This document shows positions 8,887-52,283 of a stretch of DNA of 64,000 nt, piece after piece (positions within the stretch are counted from its first letter, which is position 1; the number at the start of each line of letters is the position of its first letter). Source of the DNA: Candidatus Dojkabacteria bacterium (GTDB lineage Bacteria > Patescibacteriota > Dojkabacteria > J137). The DNA lies in contig JAUQWV010000003.1 in assembly GCA_030834985.1 (NCBI GenBank), positions 143,387 through 207,386 on the forward strand. The letters are read 5' to 3'. The position numbers and the translations under genes are program-made. Below the pieces are notes generated by a model, which was not told where the DNA came from, ran no database searches, and saw only the letters and a list, made by a program, of their open reading frames with translations.

Positions 8887-9249
8887 TTATTCTATGGAGT
8901 TTTTAACAGCTTGAAAGGGTAGAGTAGCGCATTTTAATCTAGCCATAGTTAAAGGAATCCCAACGAGATTAATCTGAAAGTCTTCACTTAGATTTTTAAC
9001 TTCATCTAATGTTTTACCTTTTAATTCTTCAAGAAGTAAGGAAGCACTTCCAATTGCAATAGAACAGCCTTCGCCACTAAACGCCACATTCTTAATAATC
9101 TTGTCAGCAGATACTTCTAACCATATTTCAATTTCATCACCGCACGATAAATTAGAAACTTTAGCATTATGAGTAGCCTCAAAAGAAGGAGCACCAAAAT
9201 TTCTTGGTGAGTGGTAATGATCTAGTAATTGTTGTTGATACTCATTCAT
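8887..9249 (-). CDS. Fe-S cluster assembly scaffold, NifU/IscU/SufU-like
   Basis: NPRNFG, CGD and GCSI cysteine motifs characteristic of U-type scaffolds. Confidence 0.8.
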   Translation of the reverse strand: MNEYQQQLLDHYHSPRNFGAPSFEATHNAKVSNLSCGDEIEIWLEVSADKIIKNVAFSGEGCSIAIGSASLLLEELKGKTLDEVKNLSEDFQINLVGIPLTMARLKCATLPFQAVKNSIE

Positions 9250-18957: not shown

Positions 18958-19734
18958 ATGGGGATCAAAATAGATAAATCCGTCAAGAACTTCTTATTAG
19001 ATTTTGGACTGACAGATAAAGAAATCACTGTTTATACAACCCTCCTTAAAACAGGACCCAATACAATTATGAATCTGGCTAGAGAAACTAGCATCAAAAG
19101 ATCCACTACACACAATACTGTTGAGGAATTAATCAAAAAAGGATTAGTAAGCCAAACAAATTATGGTGAAAGAAGAATGGTTATAGCAGAAGACCCTGAT
19201 AAATTAAAGTTTCTAATGGAGCAGAAGAAGTGGGATATTAATAAACTAGAGAAGAACTTACCTGATACAATACAGGCTATACAAGGATTAGTACCAGCAA
19301 GTACAGATGTTAATGATGTCGAAGTTAAATATTTTACAGGAGAAAAAGGTGTACAAATGATATATACTGAAGCACTAAGAGCTCAAGAACTACGATCCTA
19401 TGCAAATATTCAGAAAATATTTGAAGTCTTTCCCGATAATTCTGAGATTTTTAGACAAGCTCATATAACGAATAAAGACTTAAAATTATGGGAAATAGTT
19501 GAAAATTCTGAAGTAGCGAAAGAATACGCTTCAAAATATGCCGAAAAAGATAGGTATCATTACAAACTTTCCCCTGTATTATTTACTGCTGGAGCATTAG
19601 ATATATTGATCTATGACGGTAAAGTCGCTGTAATCACTGTTAAAGAAGGGGTTACTGGAGTCGTGATCTCTAATAAAGATTATTACAATAATACAGCTGC
19701 CGTATTCGACTTTGTATGGAGTGCTCTTGACTGA
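18958..19734 (+). CDS. TrmB-like HTH transcriptional regulator (paralog 1)
   Basis: N-terminal winged HTH (FGLTDKEITVYTTLLKTGPNTIMNLARETSIKRSTTHNTVEELIKKGLV) followed by a conserved RRMVIAEDPDKL segment typical of the TrmB architecture. Confidence 0.55.
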   Translation: MGIKIDKSVKNFLLDFGLTDKEITVYTTLLKTGPNTIMNLARETSIKRSTTHNTVEELIKKGLVSQTNYGERRMVIAEDPDKLKFLMEQKKWDINKLEKNLPDTIQAIQGLVPASTDVNDVEVKYFTGEKGVQMIYTEALRAQELRSYANIQKIFEVFPDNSEIFRQAHITNKDLKLWEIVENSEVAKEYASKYAEKDRYHYKLSPVLFTAGALDILIYDGKVAVITVKEGVTGVVISNKDYYNNTAAVFDFVWSALD

Positions 19735-20858
19735 TACACCCAATAGCTAGGTTTAAGAGCCCCTCCCAACTGGCGCTTAAATTTATTTAAATCTGAAAAT
19801 TCTGATCCACCTAGATTAACGTACTCATAGCCTTTCTGCTTTAAAAGGCTAAATAATTCTACATAAGCAAATGTTGACATAGCAGACAAGCCAATTCTTT
19901 CGTCTGCATTCCATACCGCTCCTGTTAAATTGGTTAGAACACTTTCATCTCGAAGTGTGAATGGTGTATAAAGCGCAAACGTATCTGGCGATATACTTTC
20001 GCCAACAAAAACAGATACTGGAAATTTTCCAAGAAATCCTAAAAGCCCTACGCAAGCTTCATTCTTTAGAATTTTTGAGCTTATCGAATTGATATGGTCT
20101 TCTATTGAAGAACCCGCTCGTTTACCTTGCCTAGTAAGCATATCAAAATGAGAAGTAATGACATCTAAAGCCTGGACTGCATTCTTCCCTGTTAGAGATT
20201 CTAGCCTATATTTTATATCATTTCTTTGTAAAAAATTTCTAAATCTGGCATATGCATATTTAACTTTTTTGCCGCTATCACCCTCTAAATGATGTATTTT
20301 GTTTACTCTTCTTTCCTTACCATCTAAAATTACTACATCATCTATCTTAACTAAGCAATTATTAAATGTTTCGTCTTCCTCAGGAGATTCTGGACAGAAA
20401 GGATATTCTTTAACTGGCAAATAACCTTTTTTTATAAACTCAACATATAGATTTAAATCCAGATATCTAATATATACTCCCTGAATAGGTAATTCCTTAT
20501 TGCTAAATACTCTTTGTATAAAGGTATTTACCTTATCAACAATAGCAGATCCGGTTGGAGCAACAACAAACAAATAACCATTCTTATCATCTTCTTTCTT
20601 TTTAAAAAAGCTTATTGAAAAAATCGATTTACCATCTTCGTAAACTAATCCATATTTATGAAGAGAACTAGCGCCTCGAGGATTATTTCCATTCGAATAC
20701 AGTGAAAAGGCTAATGAGCTAATTCCGAAATTTCCATTTTTATATTTATTAACTTTTTCGAAATCTTTATCTGGGTTGAACGGAGATACATGTGTTAATT
20801 CTTTCAACAGGAATTCTTCAACTTTGTCTCTGTCTGTCATAAAAGCATTATAAATCAA
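19683..20858 (-). CDS. Hypothetical protein, possibly a GNAT-fold aminoacyl-transferase-like (FemAB / MprF-C-like) protein
   Basis: The C-terminal YEYVNLGGSEFSDLNKFKRQLGG resembles the Y.Y.fGG....FKr.fGG signature of FemAB/DUF2156-type GNAT folds. Weak. Confidence 0.3.
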   Translation of the reverse strand: MIYNAFMTDRDKVEEFLLKELTHVSPFNPDKDFEKVNKYKNGNFGISSLAFSLYSNGNNPRGASSLHKYGLVYEDGKSIFSISFFKKKEDDKNGYLFVVAPTGSAIVDKVNTFIQRVFSNKELPIQGVYIRYLDLNLYVEFIKKGYLPVKEYPFCPESPEEDETFNNCLVKIDDVVILDGKERRVNKIHHLEGDSGKKVKYAYARFRNFLQRNDIKYRLESLTGKNAVQALDVITSHFDMLTRQGKRAGSSIEDHINSISSKILKNEACVGLLGFLGKFPVSVFVGESISPDTFALYTPFTLRDESVLTNLTGAVWNADERIGLSAMSTFAYVELFSLLKQKGYEYVNLGGSEFSDLNKFKRQLGGALKPSYWVYQSRALHTKSNTAAVLL

Positions 20859-20895
20859 GGGATTATATCATATTTAAGATATATTAGTTTTACCT

Positions 20896-21690
20896 CTAAT
20901 CAATGCTTTCCCAGACAATATTGTGCAAGTATATTAGAAATTTACTTATCTCTATAGAATTTAGCTTTAAGGAAAATGGAGTTGTATGCTTAAAGTTAGA
21001 AAAAATAATATAAGATTTTGTTATAAAAATATCTGTTAATTCACTTTCTCTTAATAAGGGAGAATCTTTTATAACTTTAAATTCATAGTCAGTGTAATCA
21101 TAAGCTTTTATATTTTCTTTAAGCTCCCTAACCGAATCACCGTCTATGACCAAGTCTTTGAACTTACGCTTCTTATTTAATCTATTAGCCTGCGATTGCA
21201 GAAATAAACCCTTTGGAAATGTCTTATAGTAGTCATCCAATCTACATATTGAATATACTTCTGGAATATTGACAGTAGATCTGTATAATCTAAGAACCTC
21301 CTTCTTACCTAAATACAAATCTATACTACTGTCTAGAAATGACCCTGTTAACTTTAGAAGATTTAACATTTTATTTAGCGATTCTTGTGCAGATACAATA
21401 GTTTGAATCCTATCTTCTAGAATATTAAGGTTATTATGAAGAAATCTATCGAGACTACCTAACGATTTAGCCCTATACATCTTTGTCCCAGATTTGTCTT
21501 TTACAAAATAAGCTATCAGCCCTAAATCATCAAGACTATTTAAACTCTCAATTAGAGTACTTCTAGCCAAGCCTAGAACTAAGACTAATTCTTTTATTGT
21601 ACGTTCTCTAGAAAGGAGTAAGGCATATATTCTAGCTTGAGTTTTAGAGAGTCCAATCTGGTTTAGTAATTTTAATATCTCACTATCCAT
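20896..21690 (-). CDS. TrmB-like HTH transcriptional regulator (paralog 2). Start placed at MDSEILK (the longer ORF extends to 21735)
   Basis: N-terminal HTH (LGLSKTQARIYALLLSRERTIKELVLVLGLARSTLIESL). Confidence 0.5.
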   Translation of the reverse strand: MDSEILKLLNQIGLSKTQARIYALLLSRERTIKELVLVLGLARSTLIESLNSLDDLGLIAYFVKDKSGTKMYRAKSLGSLDRFLHNNLNILEDRIQTIVSAQESLNKMLNLLKLTGSFLDSSIDLYLGKKEVLRLYRSTVNIPEVYSICRLDDYYKTFPKGLFLQSQANRLNKKRKFKDLVIDGDSVRELKENIKAYDYTDYEFKVIKDSPLLRESELTDIFITKSYIIFSNFKHTTPFSLKLNSIEISKFLIYLHNIVWESID

Positions 21691-21708
21691 ATCTATTATA
21701 AATAAACT

Positions 21709-21729
21709 GTGTCGGTAATTGCCCGACAC
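21709..21729. promoter_or_regulatory. Operator-like inverted repeat in a divergent promoter region
   Basis: GTGTCGG-taattgc-CCGACAC, perfect 7-bp arms, between TrmB-like paralog 2 and XRE gene 1. Confidence 0.35.
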
Positions 21730-21775
21730 TGGCATTGACCAGTATTATAGCAAAAACTTATAGGCTGTCGAAGCT

Positions 21776-22033
21776 ATGGAACAAGGCAAAAGAATTAAAT
21801 ACTTTCGCAAACGAGCAAACGTTACGCAACTCGAGCTTGAGCTACGGATTAATGCCTCATTTGGGAGTATAAGTAGAATGGAGACTGGATTGACTAATCC
21901 TACCAAAGAAACATTATTTGCCATAGCAAATGCATTAAACCTAACAGGTTTAGAAACTGCTATTTTATTCGGGATCGATATCACTTCTTATAACATTTCA
22001 CAAAGTCAGAATTTAGAAATCAAACTTCCGTAA
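21776..22033 (+). CDS. XRE-family (Cro/C1-type) HTH small regulator, copy 1
   Basis: IKYFRKRANVTQLELELRINASFGSISRME..LTNPTKETLFAIANAL is a classic XRE HTH. Paralog of 23016..23300. Confidence 0.7.
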   Translation: MEQGKRIKYFRKRANVTQLELELRINASFGSISRMETGLTNPTKETLFAIANALNLTGLETAILFGIDITSYNISQSQNLEIKLP

Positions 22034-22081
22034 ACAAACTCTATTTTTTTAATTTAAAACAAATCCTGGATCGTATTTTTA

Positions 22082-22852
22082 TTAGAAGCTTGGAGTAGGA
22101 ACTACTTCCCACATAGTCTTAAATAAAGAAATACTGGTCTGTATTATCGGCTTACTATATATTACTAGACCATTTATATCTTTATCCTCCTCATAAACAA
22201 GTGCTATACCTTTAGCAGTTATCATATAGTCTAAAACATCAAAGTTATCCTCACACTTTAAGAATTTACAGCTATAAGTAGGGTATTTAAGCATTGATTT
22301 CACAAACTCATTCATAATCTTCCCATTAATTATTATGTCTTTAAGTATCATCCCACCTTCTAATGCGGTCTGAAATTTATTTACATTTTCGGGGAATAGA
22401 TCTGCTGTAAAGACAGAATTAACATAAGAATAAACTTCTTTGGATGTTAATACGAAATCATAAAGTCGCCTACAATTTTCTATTCCTTCAAACATCCTAA
22501 TATCTGCGAATGTAGTTTCTTTGAGATTATTAACAGAAGCATTAATAGAGCTAATTAAGTTCAGAACATTACCTTTTCTTCTTTTTACCTCTAGCTCTTG
22601 CTGTTCTATGAGACTTCTAAACCTTTCTGGATCTTCTGCTATTATATGTCTTCTATTAGTTTTCTTTATTTCACTTACTAAGCGTTTATCTAATAAGGAA
22701 CCAACAACCATATGGACTGTTGACCTATTTATTTTTGTATATTTAGATATACTTAAAATTGTACTTGGCCCCCTTTTAAGCAAGAAAAGATAAACCTTTG
22801 ATTCATTCTGAGTTAACCCTAAATCAGTTAAACTTACTTCTAAATTATTCAT
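22082..22852 (-). CDS. TrmB-like HTH transcriptional regulator (paralog 3)
   Basis: LGLTQNESKVYLFLLKRGPSTILSISKYTKINRSTVHMVVGSLLDKRLV plus RRHIIAEDPERF. Confidence 0.55.
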   Translation of the reverse strand: MNNLEVSLTDLGLTQNESKVYLFLLKRGPSTILSISKYTKINRSTVHMVVGSLLDKRLVSEIKKTNRRHIIAEDPERFRSLIEQQELEVKRRKGNVLNLISSINASVNNLKETTFADIRMFEGIENCRRLYDFVLTSKEVYSYVNSVFTADLFPENVNKFQTALEGGMILKDIIINGKIMNEFVKSMLKYPTYSCKFLKCEDNFDVLDYMITAKGIALVYEEDKDINGLVIYSKPIIQTSISLFKTMWEVVPTPSF

Positions 22853-22948
22853 TGTATAAGGTTTACTAACATTTAAAAGATATTAATAAGCAAATGACAG
22901 ATATGTACAGGTTATTAGCAAGTTAGTAACGTCAATCTACTCCTAACA

Positions 22949-22975
22949 TTTTGTTGCATAAATTTTGCAACAAAA
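22949..22975. promoter_or_regulatory. Operator-like inverted repeat in a divergent promoter region
   Basis: TTTTGTTGC-ataaatttt-GCAACAAAA, 9-bp arms, between TrmB-like paralog 3 and XRE gene 2. Confidence 0.35.
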
Positions 22976-23015
22976 TATATCCTGATTTTAGCATAGTAAG
23001 TAAAATCCTTATATT

Positions 23016-23300
23016 ATGCTAACAATAGGTCAAAGAATAAAACACTTCCGTAAACGAGCAAACGTTACGCAACTCGAGCTTGAGCTACGGATTAATGCCT
23101 CATTTGGGAGTATAAGTAGAATGGAAAATGGGTTAACTAACCCTACAAAAGAAACCCTGTTTGCGATTGCAAACGCATTAAACCTAACAGGACTAGAAAC
23201 TGCTATTCTTTTTGGGATTGACATAGGGTCTTCCAGCGTTCTACAAAGTGAAGATTTAGAAATTAAAGTTCTGCAATCTGATAATATTCATTCAATTTGA
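23016..23300 (+). CDS. XRE-family HTH small regulator, copy 2
   Basis: N-terminal 60 aa nearly identical to copy 1. Divergent C-terminal tail. 3' end overlaps the Elp3-like gene convergently. Confidence 0.7.
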   Translation: MLTIGQRIKHFRKRANVTQLELELRINASFGSISRMENGLTNPTKETLFAIANALNLTGLETAILFGIDIGSSSVLQSEDLEIKVLQSDNIHSI

Positions 23301-25092
23301 AACCTCTTTTGTCGTAATATTCTCTTGTACCAATGCTTGAGATCACTGCAAGTTTAGTAAAGCCTTTTTCTTTAGCTATCTCTTTAGCTTTTTGTATAAG
23401 TTGAGTGCCCAAGCCTAGGTGCTGCGCTTGTCCGCTGGAGGTTTTATCGAATTCTAGGCTTGGGCCATAAACATGGACTTCACGAATAATGGCACAATCG
23501 TCTAGCTCATTTGTAATTATATTCTCTTTGCTTTTAGGCAAAGATAACCTCAAAAAGCCTGCAATTTCATTTTTAGCAGTTATAAACTGTAGGAATAGCT
23601 CATTAGCTATTTCTGTTGAATAGGGCACAATATCAAGCTTTAAATCTTCAAATTTTAGGTTCCTAAACTTAACTTCCCGCGCTCGAATATTTTGATTCTT
23701 GCGGCCTTCCTTTGCTAGTTTATATTCAATAACTTCTCGAAGATTTGTAGTTTTATTGCCGTCTGCAATCTCTGTAGATGGAATATCCCTAATAATTCTT
23801 GTCAGACGGCAATACTGAGGAGTTGCCTCTATACAATCAGCTATTAGATTTATAAGCTGTTGAGTAGTATATGGCTTGTATTTACCTTCTTGCCAATAGT
23901 TATATAATTCAGTATTTTTAATAATTGAAGTAGGGTAGATTTTCAGCTCATCAGGCTTATATTGTTCACTTTCAAATAGTTCTTTATATACTTTCAAATC
24001 AATTTCAGGAGTCGCTCCATACAAATTAGGCATTATGTGAGCATGGATTTTAAAACCGCCTGCACGAAGCAGCTGGAAGGCCCGTGAAGTTTCTGCACGA
24101 TGTTCCCCGCGCTTATTTAAATCACTTATCCTATCATCTAGAGTTTGGATTCCTAGTTGTATTTTTGTTGCGCCAAGCTTACGCAAGTCCAGAACGTCTG
24201 CGGGAGTAATTGTATCTGGCCTGGTCTCTAAAACCAAACCTACACAACGGCATGAAGATTTTGAGTTTTCGTCCTGAACATTAATCAGATCATTCCACTC
24301 GATATCTTTTTCTTCAATAATCTTTGCCTTAAAAGCCTCTTTAAATTCCTTTGTTTGAATTAACTGATTATATGGTTTATTACCATAAATCTTACGTAAA
24401 TCAGTATTGATATCGTTTTTTAAATCATTTTCTATATTTATACCTTTTAAGTCTTCCAGATCGGACATGTTTTGATGAAATACATTGTCATTATCATGGA
24501 GCCTGCTAAATTCGTTCATTGCTCTAAAACACTCATGAATGAACCAAATCTTGTATTTTTTTGGGTAATAGCTCCATGTTCCGCCTAATATGAGTAATTC
24601 AATTTTCTGAGTAGGGTGCCCAATATTTTTAAGGGCCTGTAGTCGATTAAAAACCTGAGCATAAGGGCTAAAGCGGTTCATTAAAGCACGCTGGGCACCC
24701 GGCTCTGTCGCAATATAGCTTTTAGGCATTCGCACATCATTTGGACAAAATACACACTGGCCTGGACATGCAAATGGTTTAGTAAGCACTGTTACTGTAG
24801 TTACGCCTGAAACCGTTCGCATAGGTTTCAATTTTATTTGGTCAATAATTCTTTCTAGCCCACTAATATCATTACCTGATAGCTTAATACCTTCAATACT
24901 ACCTACTTTTATAAAGTGATTTATACCTGCAATAACCTGATCCCTGCCAAAAATCTCATTTTTATCCTTTGGATATTTTCTTAAAATTTTATCTAAAGTC
25001 TTAAGATTAAACTTTTTGGCACTTAAAATAGCGGCAACAATAGAAGCTAAATCTGATTTGTATTTTTCGATATTAAATTGGTAATTCTGCAT
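23263..25092 (-). CDS. Elp3-like radical SAM + GNAT protein (tRNA wobble-uridine carboxymethyl/acetyl-transferase homologue)
   Basis: Radical-SAM cluster motif CPGQCVFCP followed by SYIATEPGAQRA. C-terminal GNAT with HVYGPSLEF..QAQHLGLGTQLI..ISSIGTREYYDKRGF, matching the Elp3 C-terminus pattern. Confidence 0.8.
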   Translation of the reverse strand: MQNYQFNIEKYKSDLASIVAAILSAKKFNLKTLDKILRKYPKDKNEIFGRDQVIAGINHFIKVGSIEGIKLSGNDISGLERIIDQIKLKPMRTVSGVTTVTVLTKPFACPGQCVFCPNDVRMPKSYIATEPGAQRALMNRFSPYAQVFNRLQALKNIGHPTQKIELLILGGTWSYYPKKYKIWFIHECFRAMNEFSRLHDNDNVFHQNMSDLEDLKGINIENDLKNDINTDLRKIYGNKPYNQLIQTKEFKEAFKAKIIEEKDIEWNDLINVQDENSKSSCRCVGLVLETRPDTITPADVLDLRKLGATKIQLGIQTLDDRISDLNKRGEHRAETSRAFQLLRAGGFKIHAHIMPNLYGATPEIDLKVYKELFESEQYKPDELKIYPTSIIKNTELYNYWQEGKYKPYTTQQLINLIADCIEATPQYCRLTRIIRDIPSTEIADGNKTTNLREVIEYKLAKEGRKNQNIRAREVKFRNLKFEDLKLDIVPYSTEIANELFLQFITAKNEIAGFLRLSLPKSKENIITNELDDCAIIREVHVYGPSLEFDKTSSGQAQHLGLGTQLIQKAKEIAKEKGFTKLAVISSIGTREYYDKRGFKLNEYYQIAEL

Positions 25093-25144
25093 TGGGTAAT
25101 TTTAACACGCACTTCTGATACAATATCAGTAGTTATTTATTTGT

Positions 25145-25831
25145 ATGGACCTTTATTCTACTTACGCAGAGGATTTCTCAAAAACAAGGCAAGCTCCATG
25201 GGATGGATGGAAAAAGACACTTAAATATATTAATTCGCTTACCAAACCTAAAGTATTAGATTTAGGCTGCGGAAATGGCCGTTTTTTAAAGTTTTTGGTT
25301 AATTCTGGTGTAAACTTGGGTGAATATACTGGTGTAGATAATTCATCTGAACTTTTAAAGATGACCGATGACTTTATGCATCAAATTCAAGCAACTAATC
25401 GGTTATCTAAATTTGAGCTTTTAAATTTAGACTTTGAGGACTTAAAGTGGGGTACCCATATAAACCAAACCTACAACCTGATAGTAGCATTTGGCATTAC
25501 TCATCACTTAAAAACAGTAGAATCGCGAAGACAATTTTTTAATACAATAAATTTCTTGTTAGAGAAAGACGGATTTTTGATTGTTACTTTCTGGGAATTC
25601 CTAAAAATTGATAGATACAAAGAGAAGTTGACGCCTGTAGTTATTGAAAGTTCACAAAATGATTTTGAGATGACATTTGGTACAAATGGAGCAAAGAGAT
25701 TTTGTCATTACTATAATCCGCTAGAGATTATTGAACTAACTAGCCATCTTCCATTAAAAATAATGGAAGAATATAACGAAGATGGAGTAGAAAATAACCA
25801 AAACCATTATATTGTTTACAAAAAACTTTAA
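25145..25831 (+). CDS. Trm9/ALKBH8-like SAM-dependent methyltransferase (class I)
   Basis: N-terminal Y..YAEDFSKTRQAPW (Trm9-type Y..IA..FS.TR.kPW), VLDLGCGNGRFL motif I, and a later ITHHL...W motif resembling Trm9 HHW. Confidence 0.6.
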   Translation: MDLYSTYAEDFSKTRQAPWDGWKKTLKYINSLTKPKVLDLGCGNGRFLKFLVNSGVNLGEYTGVDNSSELLKMTDDFMHQIQATNRLSKFELLNLDFEDLKWGTHINQTYNLIVAFGITHHLKTVESRRQFFNTINFLLEKDGFLIVTFWEFLKIDRYKEKLTPVVIESSQNDFEMTFGTNGAKRFCHYYNPLEIIELTSHLPLKIMEEYNEDGVENNQNHYIVYKKL

Positions 25832-26511
25832 TGGACTTCAAAAGGAGAGGTACAAGCAACCTAGATATTAGAAGTAGGAAGCTAAAAACAAAGCTTATCG
25901 TTTTTCGCGATAAACATTTTAATTTAAGATCTATTTTAAAATTAATATTACCTATTGTGATTGTGGCGGCGCTGATGCCGTTAGCTTTGTACTTTTTAGT
26001 AACATGGACCTATCAGCGCCGCACAATCACCACTCCTCAAGAAATCCCATTAGAGCTGCGTACTGGCGTTGTCATGTTGCGCCAGGAAGATATCTTATAC
26101 GACTTTGACAACGCCAGGCAACTAATTAACCAAATGTTAGATTTATACACTAAAAAAAGAGTAACTCAAGTATTCATCATTGCTTACAACGATAACAGAA
26201 CTGTTGTTTCATCAATTGAACCTTTTGAGCAGTTCTTTAAAGATATTCCAACTGATAATTACAAAATTGATATCTCTGCTAAAAATATCTTTGAAGCATG
26301 TAATACAATTTCGGAAAAATATCAAACTCAAAAGTTTCTACTTACTTCGTACCGAAATGTTTTGCCACGTATGAGTTATGCATGCAACGTTGAAGGACAA
26401 TATGTAAAGCCATACTTGCCTAGAGAGTATCAATTTACAACCCAGGAAGATGATTTTAAAGATACGCTTGATATAATATTAAAAAGTATCTTTCCAAATA
26501 CACAAGAATAG
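25831..26511 (+). CDS. SanA/DUF218-like membrane-anchored protein
   Basis: N-terminal TM, then TGVVML ... VFIIAYNDN ... FLLTSYRNVLPRMSYAC, matching the layout of E. coli SanA. Confidence 0.4.
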   Translation: MDFKRRGTSNLDIRSRKLKTKLIVFRDKHFNLRSILKLILPIVIVAALMPLALYFLVTWTYQRRTITTPQEIPLELRTGVVMLRQEDILYDFDNARQLINQMLDLYTKKRVTQVFIIAYNDNRTVVSSIEPFEQFFKDIPTDNYKIDISAKNIFEACNTISEKYQTQKFLLTSYRNVLPRMSYACNVEGQYVKPYLPREYQFTTQEDDFKDTLDIILKSIFPNTQE

Positions 26512-28821: not shown

Positions 28822-31143
28822 ATGAGCTTACCTAACGGACCATACAATCCTCAGCAAAATGAGGACGAAATTCTTAAATACTGGCTTGAAAACAAATTCT
28901 ACAAGCCTGAATACAGCCCTGTAAAAGACCAGGTAGTTTCTACTGAAGAAATGAAAGCTGACCCAAGAGAGCCATTCAGCATTATTTGCCCGCCGCCAAA
29001 TGCCTACGGCAGGCCTCATTTAGGGAATATCTCTGGATATGCATATCAAGATGCAATGGGTAGATATGCCAGAATGAAAGGTAAAAAAGTCTTACTTTTA
29101 CCAGGCAAAGACCATGCAGGTTTAGAAGGTGAGGGTGTTTTTGTTCGAGATATTTTAGAGAAAAAAGGGGTGGATAAATTTTCATTAAGCCGTGAAGAAT
29201 TCTATAACCAAATTTGGAAATTTAACATGCAGAATAAAGAACTAGCATTGAAAGATGAACAGACCATTGGACTTTCTGCTGACTTTGATAGAGATATCTT
29301 TACACTTGACCCTAAAATCGTTGAAATTGTTTTATCAACATTTATAGAAATGTTCAATCAAAATATGATCTATAAAGGAGTTCGTATTGTAAATTGGGAT
29401 CCTAAAGCCCAATCAGTAATTGCTGATAATCAATGTGTACGTGAAGAGAGAAAAGGAAAGATTTATAGAATCAAATATCCTATTGTTGATGATAATAACC
29501 AAATAACTGGAGAATTTATTACAGTCGCAACAACAAGACCTGAAACAATGTTTGGAGATACTGCAATTGCAGTTAATTCTACAGATGAACGCTATACGAA
29601 TCTAGTCGGTAGAAAATGTTTGATACCTTTAACAAATACAATTATTCCAATAATTACAAGTCCACGTGTAGAAAAAGAATTTGGTACCGGTTGTTTAAAA
29701 ATTACACCAGCCCATTCATTAGATGATTTCACAATTATGACTGAATGGAATCAAGCTAATCAGGCCAACCAAATAAGCTACTGCAATGTAATAAATAAGG
29801 ACTTAACTTTGGTTGGCCCAGTACCATCCAAATATCTAGGTAGAAAATACACTGATGTATTACCAGAAATCCTTTCTGATCTAAAAAGTGGAGAATACCT
29901 AATTTCAGAAGAAGAATTAGTTCAAAATATCTTAATTGCAGAAAGAACAAAAGCTATTGTTGAACCAATAATGAGTTCTCAATGGTTTATTGATATTGAA
30001 AAAATCAGACAACCTGTGATTGATATGGTTAAAAATGGAGATGTAACAATTCATCCTAAAAATATGGAGGCTAAATTCTTTTACTGGATGGAAAATTTAA
30101 GAGATTGGGCAATCAGCAGAACTCTATGGTGGGGCTACAGGATGCCAGTATGGTATGCAGGTCCTATTGAAGAAAGAATAGATAACAACGGCAAAGTTGA
30201 AACCTTTATAAATTTAAATAATGAATGGGTTGTTTTAGATTCAACAAGCGAAAACCACTTGAAAGTGCAACTAGAAAGTCCTGGAACAAACTGGATTCAA
30301 GAAGAAAGTGTTCTAGATACATGGTTTAGCTCCGGACAATGGCCATATGCAACATTGATGGTAAATAATTTAATGGATACATTTTATCCAACAAGTGTAA
30401 TGGAAACTGGATACGATATTCTTGAAAATTGGGTAAGCAGAATGATGATGTTCAGCTACTTTAAATTAAAAAAGGAGCCATTTAAAGATATTTATCTTCA
30501 TGGATTAGTAAAAGGAACTGATGGACAAAAAATGAGTAAATCAAAAGGTAATGTTATTCCAATGGATCAGGCTAAAGAAAAATATGGAGTAGATCCTTTA
30601 AGAATGGTTTATTTTTATCAAAATAGTGCAGGGGCAAGCTATGCATTAACTTACGAAAAGTTAGAGATGTTTAAAAACTTTAATAATAAGATTTGGAATG
30701 CTAGTAAATTTGTACTTGGTAATTTTGAAAAGAATAATATTCAATACAGCATTCCAGCTTTAGATAGTTTAAGACTCGAAAATAGTAAAGAGATTTTTAA
30801 TCATATTACCGATGTAAAACAAAAAGTCACAAAGTTTATGGATACATTTAAATTTGGTCTAGCTAGCTCAACTTTGTACGATGAATTCTGGCATAATTTT
30901 TGTGATAAGTTAATCGAGCAATCTAAGGTATATTTGTATACACAGAAAAATAAAGATACAGGTGAATTTATCAGCGAACCAAAGCCGGAGGAATTACAAG
31001 AAACAGTAAATATTTTTGTTTATGCACTAAAAGAATATACTAAGATGCTGCACCCATTTATTCCGTTTATAACAGAAAAGATCTGGCAGGAACTGCCAAA
31101 AGTGGAAGGTGATCATAAAACAGTTATGTATTCGAAGTGGTAG
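28822..31143 (+). CDS. valS: Valine--tRNA ligase (class Ia aaRS), short form lacking a C-terminal coiled coil
   Basis: PPPNAYGRPHLGN (HIGH-type), GKDHAG (ValS-specific TDHAGIAT-like), RIVNWDPKAQSVIADNQ and KMSKSKGNV. Confidence 0.75.
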   Translation: MSLPNGPYNPQQNEDEILKYWLENKFYKPEYSPVKDQVVSTEEMKADPREPFSIICPPPNAYGRPHLGNISGYAYQDAMGRYARMKGKKVLLLPGKDHAGLEGEGVFVRDILEKKGVDKFSLSREEFYNQIWKFNMQNKELALKDEQTIGLSADFDRDIFTLDPKIVEIVLSTFIEMFNQNMIYKGVRIVNWDPKAQSVIADNQCVREERKGKIYRIKYPIVDDNNQITGEFITVATTRPETMFGDTAIAVNSTDERYTNLVGRKCLIPLTNTIIPIITSPRVEKEFGTGCLKITPAHSLDDFTIMTEWNQANQANQISYCNVINKDLTLVGPVPSKYLGRKYTDVLPEILSDLKSGEYLISEEELVQNILIAERTKAIVEPIMSSQWFIDIEKIRQPVIDMVKNGDVTIHPKNMEAKFFYWMENLRDWAISRTLWWGYRMPVWYAGPIEERIDNNGKVETFINLNNEWVVLDSTSENHLKVQLESPGTNWIQEESVLDTWFSSGQWPYATLMVNNLMDTFYPTSVMETGYDILENWVSRMMMFSYFKLKKEPFKDIYLHGLVKGTDGQKMSKSKGNVIPMDQAKEKYGVDPLRMVYFYQNSAGASYALTYEKLEMFKNFNNKIWNASKFVLGNFEKNNIQYSIPALDSLRLENSKEIFNHITDVKQKVTKFMDTFKFGLASSTLYDEFWHNFCDKLIEQSKVYLYTQKNKDTGEFISEPKPEELQETVNIFVYALKEYTKMLHPFIPFITEKIWQELPKVEGDHKTVMYSKW

Positions 31144-51086: not shown

Positions 51087-52283
51087 TTAAAAAGTCAATG
51101 AAGGATCTCTGTCTAGTTTCTCAAAATCTTTAAGCCAGATTCCACTTACGGGATCGTGAGCTAAATTAGTTAATCCTATTTTTGCAATTTTATAATTTGC
51201 AGCTAACGCTATCATTGCGGCGTTATCGCCTGTTAGTTTTTTTGTATAAGGGTAGAGCAAGTCTGCGCCAAAAGCTTTGGCTACTTTTCTTAATTCACTT
51301 CGCAGCCTTGCGGATGCGATAACGCCGCCACCAAGCCATACTTGTTCAATTTGATTTTCTTTTAACGCTTTAGCAAGTTTTATTTTTAGCTGTTCAATTG
51401 CAGCTGCTTCAAATAAAACACAAAATGCAACTATCTGTTCTTTAGATAAGCTACTTTCACCCTGAACCTCTTTTTGATGTGTAAGCTTATTTCCTGATAA
51501 TCCTTCTACTAATTGCTTAAATGCAGTTTTTAAACCTGAGTAGCTGAAATTTAAATCTCCTGAACGAGCCATTGCTACTGGTAATTCAAAAACCTCACCT
51601 GTACTTTTATTTGTACAAATAGCTTTAGTTGATAAATTATCTTTTACTGTTTTTAATTCAAAGTTTTTTCTATTTTCTTTTGCAATTTTAGAAATTACTG
51701 GTCCTGCAGGATAACCAAAACCTAAAATTCTTCCGCACTTATCGTAAGCTTCGCCACAAGAATCATCTAAAGTTTCTCCTAACTTTAAGTAGCTACCAAA
51801 ATCTCTAACTAAGATTAACTCTGTATGTCCACCAGAGATTAAAAAACCGAGTGCTGGGAATTTAGGTATATATGATTTACTACTTTTTTTAGAATTAGGA
51901 ACTGCTAAAGATGAAAGTAGGTGCCCTTCCATATGATTAATAGCTATTAAAGGTTTTTTATACCTTACAGCAAGTTCTTTAGCTTTCTTTAAACCAATCT
52001 CTAAAGCAATTGCTAATCCTGGACCATATGTTACTGCTATTAAGTCTATTTGATCCATAGACACACCTGATCTTTTTAACGCTTGATCAACTACATTATT
52101 AATACGCTCTGAATGTGCTAGCTTAGCTAAGGAAGGAACCACGCCGCCAAATTTAGAATGATATTCCATTTGTGAAGGCAGTTCGTTTGCTAAAATTTGG
52201 CGGCCAGAAACCACCGAAACAGAAGTCTCGTCGCATGAGGTATCAATCGCTAATGTTGTTATATCTTCAAGATTTTGCATCAA
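51087..52283 (-). CDS. tsaD: tRNA N6-adenosine threonylcarbamoyltransferase TsaD/Kae1
   Basis: LAIDTSCDETSV and AINHMEGH metal-binding motifs. Has an internal insertion relative to a typical TsaD. Confidence 0.85.
   Translation of the reverse strand: MMQNLEDITTLAIDTSCDETSVSVVSGRQILANELPSQMEYHSKFGGVVPSLAKLAHSERINNVVDQALKRSGVSMDQIDLIAVTYGPGLAIALEIGLKKAKELAVRYKKPLIAINHMEGHLLSSLAVPNSKKSSKSYIPKFPALGFLISGGHTELILVRDFGSYLKLGETLDDSCGEAYDKCGRILGFGYPAGPVISKIAKENRKNFELKTVKDNLSTKAICTNKSTGEVFELPVAMARSGDLNFSYSGLKTAFKQLVEGLSGNKLTHQKEVQGESSLSKEQIVAFCVLFEAAAIEQLKIKLAKALKENQIEQVWLGGGVIASARLRSELRKVAKAFGADLLYPYTKKLTGDNAAMIALAANYKIAKIGLTNLAHDPVSGIWLKDFEKLDRDPSLTF

Follow-up and report, generated by a model that had tools for sequence, protein, structure and literature searches.

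Genes for Elp3 and Trm9 are clustered in Sulfolobus, and in Haloferax HvoTrm9–Trm112 makes 5-methoxycarbonylmethyluridine (mcm5U) (PMC6144793). In bacteria, Elp3 is described in papers on the enzyme as rare or as confined to Dehalococcoides (including PMC7663514), and a 2026 paper speaks of Elp3 in "numerous bacteria." A bacterial Trm9, or a bacterial pairing of Elp3 with Trm9, is described in none of the papers that we found; the sole paper found with Elp3 alongside Patescibacteria concerns Thorarchaeia. Here, we describe an Elp3 gene and the gene of a Trm9-like methyltransferase in a 64-kb stretch of DNA (contig JAUQWV010000003.1, hereafter the window; 33.5% G+C), which is a chromosome fragment of a bacterium, Candidatus Dojkabacteria (Patescibacteria, or candidate phyla radiation, CPR). 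The closest database proteins are 97%–99% identical and, where an organism is named, belong to Candidatus Dojkabacteria (formerly candidate division WS6, of the Patescibacteria/CPR lineage).

As noted in the preliminary description of this locus, a 609-amino acid (aa) open reading frame (ORF) on the minus strand and a 228-aa ORF on the plus strand are divergent and separated by 52 bp (Table 1). From homology and synteny, the two probably constitute a module for the wobble uridine, in which Elp3 makes 5-carboxymethyluridine at position 34 (cm5U34) and the Trm9-like enzyme methyl-esterifies it to mcm5U34. Following the chemistry established for the Elp3 family, the large protein would bind a tRNA with U34 and its lysine acetyltransferase (KAT) domain would hydrolyze acetyl-CoA. 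The radical S-adenosylmethionine (SAM) domain would produce a 5′-deoxyadenosyl radical, through which the methyl group of the acetyl moiety becomes activated and adds to C5 of U34, giving cm5U34. The divergent methyltransferase would then use SAM to esterify the cm5 carboxylate, and both genes may be transcribed from back-to-back promoters in the spacer.

The 609-aa protein is a genuine Elp3. NCBIfam TIGR01211 (ELP3) matches residues 80–604 with 480.6 bits (cutoff 350), and Pfam recognizes Radical_SAM (40.9 bits), Radical_SAM_C (PF16199, 78.4 bits with a cutoff of 31.9, residues 380–459), and Acetyltransf_1 (25.1 bits, residues 504–598). Its sequence matches in the PDB (phmmer) are Elp3 only, with M. 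infernus MinElp3 at 6.7e-95, D. mccartyi DmcElp3 at 4.5e-91, and the yeast, human, and mouse proteins at about 1e-78. The AlphaFold2 (AF2) model, built on 37 homologs, has a predicted local distance difference test score (pLDDT) of 85.3. With this model, the best 11 Foldseek matches are all solved Elp3s (target TM-score, TMt, 0.84–0.91; E 1e-37 to 1e-33), followed by other radical-SAM enzymes at E about 1e-6. The motifs initially quoted for this protein (CPGQCVFCP, SYIATEP, HVYG, QHLGLG, and IGTREYY) are all present.

The cysteines C109, C113, and C116 of the first motif are invariant in the 37 homologs and likewise in each of the 63 Elp3 copies of the GTDB loci described below. Functional residues named in PMC6367351 were transferred to the window protein through the HMMER alignment: K150, K266, Q461 (E386 in DmcElp3), H463, and Y517 of MinElp3 correspond to K163, K348, E538, H540, and Y592. 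All of these, H540 included, are conserved in the window protein and in the bacterial Elp3 copies collected; for K163, K348, E538, and Y592, this was counted over the 62 full-length copies, where the only exceptions are two conservative changes of E538 (to D and to Q). That such a protein is a lysine acetyltransferase acting on proteins and not on tRNA is extremely improbable: The GNAT/KAT domain is present and older annotations call Elp3 a histone acetyltransferase (as in PDB molecule names), but the protein has an intact radical-SAM triad and, as its conserved partner, a Trm9-like enzyme.

NCBI and JGI annotations already label the nearest bacterial homologs Elp3. Counted over all domains of life, homologs at E ≤ 1e-10 number >7,900, and the closest come from Dojkabacteria and further uncultured bacteria. 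The initial remark that bacterial Elp3 is uncommon is, therefore, incorrect for Patescibacteria, Chloroflexota, and Acidobacteriota.

One genome per GTDB species was scanned with a profile of the methyltransferase, which gave 80 loci, and Elp3 was located in them by tblastn with the window Elp3. In 63 loci, Elp3 lies directly upstream of the methyltransferase in divergent orientation (63 of 76 when at least 2 kb of upstream sequence is present). Three more loci have Elp3 on the methyltransferase strand within 10 kb. No Elp3 is seen in four loci with <2 kb of upstream sequence to examine, nor within 10 kb in ten loci despite room upstream. Since the pairing recurs in so many independent species loci, the adjacency is far beyond chance.

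By record titles, the positive loci within Patescibacteria belong to Dojkabacteria, Saccharibacteria, Paceibacterota, WWE3, Woesebacteria, Gracilibacteria, and others. Outside, they are found in Chloroflexota (mostly Anaerolineales), Acidobacteriota (Thermoanaerobaculia, including Candidatus Multivorans), and Fermentibacteria; a few positive metagenome-assembled genomes (MAGs) are labeled Proteobacteria or Myxococcales. The arrangement is, thus, kept across several bacterial phyla and the pair behaves as one inherited unit. When all ORFs of the 80 loci are clustered, only the Elp3 and methyltransferase families recur, with no Trm112-like, thiolase, or other conserved partner beside them. A cluster of ∼100-aa ORFs in 33 loci, considered as a conserved third gene, appears to consist of shadow ORFs opposite the Elp3 strand.

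In the reverse sampling, with Elp3 picked regardless of the methyltransferase, three loci were informative: In two, a divergent class I methyltransferase lies 45–58 bp upstream, and the third has a TetR gene in its place. Where no Elp3 is visible, the methyltransferase still shows these signature residues, so that such loci probably contain the same methyltransferase family with Elp3 encoded elsewhere. The linkage is real and kept across phyla, which argues for one pathway, as had been proposed from the window alone; the genomic context (63 divergent-adjacent loci and three within 10 kb) points to a functional coupling of the methyltransferase to Elp3. In two loci of the Patescibacteria type, SpoU-type and RsmB/F-type RNA methyltransferase genes occur a few kilobases from the pair (L088, 2266–3455; L089, 1–267 and 8359–8845), which hints at a looser clustering of RNA-modification genes.

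The 228-aa protein belongs to the Trm9 family by sequence, not demonstrably by fold. Its motifs FSKTRQAPW, VLDLGCGNG, and ITHHL are present as first reported, and the nearest characterized relative in sequence comparisons is Trm9 rather than another methyltransferase family. With the single sequence, the top PDB match is Y. lipolytica Trm9 (YlTrm9, 5cm2_Z; 3e-5). With a profile of 30 family members, the same chain is found at E 7.6e-21 (77.8 bits) over nearly its full length, and the alignment reaches into the C-terminal substrate lid; the runner-up (1.3e-16) ends before the R-x-x-H lid motif. Alignment of the family to YlTrm9 by hhalign gives a probability of 99.4%, and JGI names 14 of 120 homologs among the matches listed "tRNA (uracil-5-)-methyltransferase TRM9." The AF2 model (pLDDT 91) is a Rossmann fold.

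Family databases say less. The Pfam search foreseen in the preliminary description did find the domains expected in both proteins, Methyltransf_11 among them, but it cannot decide for Trm9. Only generic families (Methyltransf_11/12/23/25/31) match the 228-aa protein, and all NCBIfam matches are below cutoff (a daptide methyltransferase at 45.8 bits with a cutoff of 175, UbiE, and CmoB). Pfam and NCBIfam contain no Trm9-specific model, and the authentic Yarrowia Trm9 (a stretch of 183 residues rebuilt from the HMMER alignment) also matches only the generic methyltransferase families of Pfam. The test is, therefore, uninformative and does not refute the Trm9 assignment. A generic class I enzyme, acting on a small molecule, a protein, or rRNA and merely adjoining Elp3, would fit these matches, as well as the fold searches, in which mRNA cap, glycine, and natural-product methyltransferases score equal to or above Trm9. 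We regard such an enzyme as quite unlikely, given the divergent Elp3 in most loci of several phyla with no other conserved neighbor, the top rank of Trm9 among sequence relatives in an alignment that extends beyond the Rossmann core, and the equally generic matches of a genuine Trm9.

The residues of S. cerevisiae Trm9 mapped by mutagenesis are R29, D72, H115/H116, W145, W168, R241, Y243, and N271 (PMC4678810). In the window protein, R29 corresponds to R15, H115/H116 to H120/H121, W145 to W150, and R241 to R185, all conserved; the equivalents of R15, H120, H121, W150, and R185 are kept in 64–66 of the 66 Elp3-linked methyltransferases. The SAM-binding D72 corresponds to the invariant D39, together with motif I VLDLGCGNG. 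At the position of W168, the window protein has F178, with Trp in 69 of 81 relatives (this position was counted only over all 81 aligned methyltransferase sequences). The position of Y243 is C187 and is not conserved, with V, Y, C, A, or I across the family. In yeast, Y243 serves in tRNA binding and catalysis, and Y243A keeps about 10% of the activity (a 10-fold loss), while N271 is proposed to recognize uracil (PMC4678810). The probable counterpart of N271 is N220, which is invariant in the 30-member alignment and opens the last strand; the HMMER and hhalign alignments to YlTrm9 end just before it.

The window Elp3 differs in several segments from the solved structures. Alignments to TIGR01211 and to PDB entries begin at about residues 80–83, after an N-terminal region with AF2 helices at 12–24, 30–39, 50–63, and 73–86 (block pLDDT 81–90). 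Such a segment may bind tRNA, by analogy with archaeal and eukaryotic Elp3, whose N-termini are described as binding tRNA (PMC6367351). Each PDB Elp3 aligns to the window protein as two blocks, about 83–195 and 270–604, so that residues 196–270 constitute an insertion. It contains the invariant Y241 and N242 (KPYNQLI; 37 homologs) and is predicted to be mostly helical (block pLDDT 72–86), with disorder at residues 203–211. Across the GTDB loci, the length at this site varies from 6 to 136 aa.

At the CxCxxC linker site, the window Elp3 reads KNQNIRARE (residues 463–471) and, thus, does not contain the motif. Among the 63 bacterial Elp3 copies from the loci, CxCxxC is kept in 51 and absent in 12, the window included. 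The 51 copies with the motif are mostly without insertion, with typically a 6-aa linker and a few up to 43 aa; the 12 without it carry insertions of 32–136 aa at the same radical-SAM site, in which KPYNQLI is a conserved motif. These 12 are the window and loci L001–L003, L005, L007, L008, L012, L016, L022, L025, and L065. Their hosts are the window organism, another Dojkabacteria genome, Pacebacteria, Woesebacteria, WWE3, a MAG titled only "bacterium," a MAG labeled Myxococcales, and five Thermoanaerobaculia (three of them Multivoraceae). On these alignments, bacterial Elp3 falls into two apparent subtypes, the loss of CxCxxC and the gain of the insertion going together. Eukaryotic Elp3 is likewise without CxCxxC, and the motif, therefore, does not define the whole Elp3 family.

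Several points weigh against the formation of mcm5U34 by this pair. Trm112 is obligatory for eukaryotic and Haloferax Trm9, but neither the window nor the conserved neighborhood of the 80 loci yielded one; a crude motif scan of the 64 kb gave neither a small CxxC…CxxC ORF nor a Trm112-like motif. With no activator of the Trm112 type beside the pair, the enzyme may act by itself or rely on a Trm112 gene at another place in the genome. In the Elp3-bearing bacteria cited, Dehalococcoides spp., direct evidence for xcm5U34 derivatives is lacking (PMC7663514). Further points are the ten of 76 loci with upstream room and no Elp3 within 10 kb, the generic or sub-threshold family matches of the methyltransferase, the Cys187 at the variable position of Tyr243, and the G, S, or A that replaces Asn220 in the Anaerolineales branch.

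Some of these points could instead mean that the two enzymes share one pathway with an end product other than mcm5U, either through a different Elp3-derived intermediate or atom, or as an ncm5U-like or unknown bacterial xcm5U. The change of Trm9 Tyr243 to Cys, Val, or Ala in the family would suit such a product, as would the divergent subtype of the window Elp3, with its insertion and without CxCxxC. In Haloferax, moreover, trm9 mutants do not accumulate cm5U, which is converted further (PMC6144793). Yet the equivalents of R29 and H116, proposed to position the carboxylate, are invariant, as are those of H115, W145, and R241, and the acetyl-CoA and Fe–S residues of Elp3 are all conserved; a different product is, thus, rather unlikely. 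The mcm5U34 module remains the preferred reading of the pair. Its extension to a self-contained mcm5U34 pathway that needs no Trm112, is widespread in Patescibacteria, Chloroflexota (Anaerolineae), and Acidobacteriota (Thermoanaerobaculia), and includes an undescribed Elp3 subtype with CxCxxC replaced by a conserved insertion of 32–136 aa, is put forward tentatively, as somewhat short of an even chance.

The spacer contains the palindrome CTGATAcaaTATCAG, a perfect 6+6 inverted repeat that occurs once in the window and was at first viewed as a possible common operator. The palindrome is there, but compared with five close relatives (82%–57% methyltransferase identity) the spacer shows two conserved islands amid variable sequence with indels, and the right arm TATCAG of the palindrome is conserved in none of them. 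Perfect 6+6 palindromes with 0–6-nt spacers are found in ∼12% of the 52-bp windows of this sequence, so that CTGATAcaaTATCAG is not statistically unusual, and it was rejected as a conserved operator. The left arm belongs to the first island, kept as TTGATA(A/C)AAT (TGnTAnAAT; TTGGTAGAAT in L087), and reads as an extended −10 element, TGnTAcAAT (TGATACAAT in the window). On its plus strand, the second island reads AATTTTAACA in the window and in L081, L083, L086, and L087; L085 differs by a single substitution (AATTTTAGCA). A scan with the two-hexamer sigma-70 consensus gave no site in the spacer, and the whole region is not enriched. From their sequence and conservation, both islands may be extended −10 promoter elements; the position of the second, TGTTAAAAT in the direction of Elp3, suggests a leaderless or near-leaderless Elp3 mRNA. 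A regulator co-controlling both genes through the palindrome, for instance one of the neighboring XRE or TrmB-like helix-turn-helix (HTH) proteins, would agree with the central position and uniqueness of the repeat and with the several HTH regulator genes that adjoin Elp3. With an unconserved right arm, the background frequency, and a left arm that fits a −10 element, such control is very unlikely.

Table 1. Features of the Elp3–methyltransferase locus and of its surroundings (positions in the window)
Feature	Position	Strand	Remark
NifU/IscU-like Fe–S scaffold	8887..9249	−	
Regulator cluster	18958..23300		adjoins Elp3 on the lower-coordinate side
TrmB-like HTH protein	18958..19734		
391-aa ORF	19683..20858		no family match; within the regulator cluster
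TrmB-like HTH protein	20896..21735		
Direct repeat, first copy	21784..22060		277 nt; XRE gene
TrmB-like HTH protein	22082..22852		
XRE-type HTH gene	23016..23300	+	overlaps the Elp3 3′ end convergently, 38 nt
Direct repeat, second copy	23027..23303		277 nt; XRE gene
Elp3 gene, 609 aa	23263..25092	−	radical-SAM and KAT/GNAT; predicted tRNA U34 cm5U synthase
KAT (GNAT) domain	23266..23655	−	predicted acetyl-CoA site E538, H540, QHLGLG 557–562, Y592/Y593
Insertion, ∼75 aa, residues 196–270	24283..24507	−	in the radical-SAM domain; in no solved Elp3 structure
Radical-SAM [4Fe-4S] triad C109-x3-C113-x2-C116	24745..24768	−	CPGQCVFCP; aligns to the MinElp3 cluster cysteines
Elp3 N-terminal region, residues 1–86	24835..25092	−	predicted folded four-helix segment before the TIGR01211-matched core
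Divergent intergenic spacer, 52 bp	25093..25144	.	two conserved −10-like elements
TGTTAAAAT	25099..25107	−	extended −10-like; 6 nt ahead of the Elp3 ATG
Palindrome CTGATAcaaTATCAG	25115..25129		perfect 6+6 inverted repeat, centered in the spacer
TGATACAAT	25116..25124	+	extended −10-like, left arm of the palindrome; 20 nt ahead of the methyltransferase ATG
Trm9-family class I SAM methyltransferase, 228 aa	25145..25831	+	predicted to form the carboxyl methyl ester, cm5U34 to mcm5U34
226-aa ORF	25831..26511	+	N-terminal transmembrane helix; shares 1 nt with the methyltransferase stop codon
Class I aminoacyl-tRNA synthetase ORF	28822..31143	+	valyl-tRNA synthetase (ValRS) from its domains
TsaD	51087..52283	−	tRNA t6A37 synthesis

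In close relatives, the syntenic block runs rpsG, TrmB, an unknown gene, TrmB, XRE, and Elp3, then, on the divergent side, the methyltransferase, three genes of 221, 368, and 117 aa, ValRS, and a Mur ligase. The 226-aa ORF that follows the methyltransferase in the window has counterparts of 221–224 aa in close relatives only; it matches no Pfam or NCBIfam family, has no tblastn match in the 80 GTDB loci, and is a lineage-specific operon neighbor outside the conserved pair. On the other side, the regulator cluster comprises three TrmB-like HTH proteins, two paralogous XRE HTH proteins, whose genes form a direct repeat with 81% identity, and the 391-aa ORF. The overlap of the XRE gene with the 3′ end of Elp3 is found also in L081, L082, L083, L084, and L086 and is, therefore, conserved and no accident of ORF calling. 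Through antisense transcription, it might couple the expression of the two genes.

The synthetase ORF has 773 aa, compared with 884–935 aa in syntenic relatives. A ValRS split by an in-frame stop was considered and rejected, the relatives sharing the same C-terminus; because the C-termini are identical in sequence, the difference in length is an internal gap after about residue 226. Elsewhere, the window encodes RecA, RecJ, DnaN, and TsaD, which acts in the synthesis of N6-threonylcarbamoyladenosine at position 37 (t6A37), and an Fe–S scaffold of the type that radical-SAM enzymes such as Elp3 need for cluster assembly. Two large ORFs of 1157 and 1347 aa, putatively rpoB and rpoC from their size and position, are followed by two small ORFs, the second of which occupies the position of the S7 gene in relatives. 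MnmE, MnmG, and MnmA were not seen among the window ORFs scanned, and a scan of the whole window gave no tRNA gene and no Rfam match.

Already known are both enzyme families, the pipeline names of both proteins, and the archaeal clustering of Elp3 with Trm9. What may deserve the attention of specialists is the divergent pair that extends over phyla and the CxCxxC-less, insertion-bearing subtype of Elp3. Elp3 is common in several phyla rich in uncultured members and, in most loci gathered with the methyltransferase profile, forms a tight divergent pair with a Trm9-family enzyme. If the proposed pathway is true, mcm5U would be a bacterial modification, beside its eukaryotic and archaeal occurrence, and possibly a stand-in for MnmEG in the reduced CPR genomes; with mcm5U confirmed, the map of bacterial wobble modifications would need revision. 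Structural work would gain from the pair a Trm9 that may not need Trm112, together with an Elp3 subtype that has a new insertion.

Compared with the Elp3 family (D. mccartyi, M. infernus, and the yeast and human Elongator), the window protein shares the architecture of radical-SAM, Radical_SAM_C, and KAT domains, the Fe–S triad, the acetyl-CoA and catalytic residues, and, from the superposition of its model on the solved structures, the predicted fold. It stands alone, as do archaeal Elp3 and DmcElp3, and genes for other Elongator subunits do not recur nearby in the 80 loci; like eukaryotic Elp3, it is without CxCxxC. It differs from all solved Elp3s in the insertion, from DmcElp3, which has a short N-terminus, in the predicted helical segment of ∼85 aa, and from MinElp3 in the cluster spacing (Cx3Cx2C vs. 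Cx4Cx2C). With the methyltransferase domain of Trm9/ALKBH8 (PDB 5CM2, HvoTrm9), the window enzyme shares VLDLGCGNG, the N-terminal TR..PW arginine, the HH dyad, W150, the R-x-x-H lid motif, and probably the terminal Asn, and with Sulfolobus Trm9 the pairing with Elp3 in the genome. The differences are the bacterial host, Cys in place of Tyr243, and Phe in place of W168; no Trm112 gene was found nearby.

Two other bacterial systems act on the same nucleotide. CmoM, too, turns a carboxylate on the side chain of U34 into a methyl ester, in the pathway from uridine 5-oxyacetic acid (cmo5U) to its methyl ester (mcmo5U) in Proteobacteria. No chain named CmoM or SmtA is present among the best 60 profile matches in the PDB, and CmoB gives only weak matches to the window methyltransferase (4qnu, E 0.005), far below Trm9; moreover, the window enzyme has Elp3, and not CmoA/CmoB, as its conserved partner. 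MnmE/MnmG, which make 5-carboxymethylaminomethyluridine (cmnm5U34), have the same target, C5 of U34, and the same decoding role (PMC7663514), but the proteins are unrelated and the chemistry differs, with a GTPase and FAD/folate in place of radical-SAM and acetyl-CoA.

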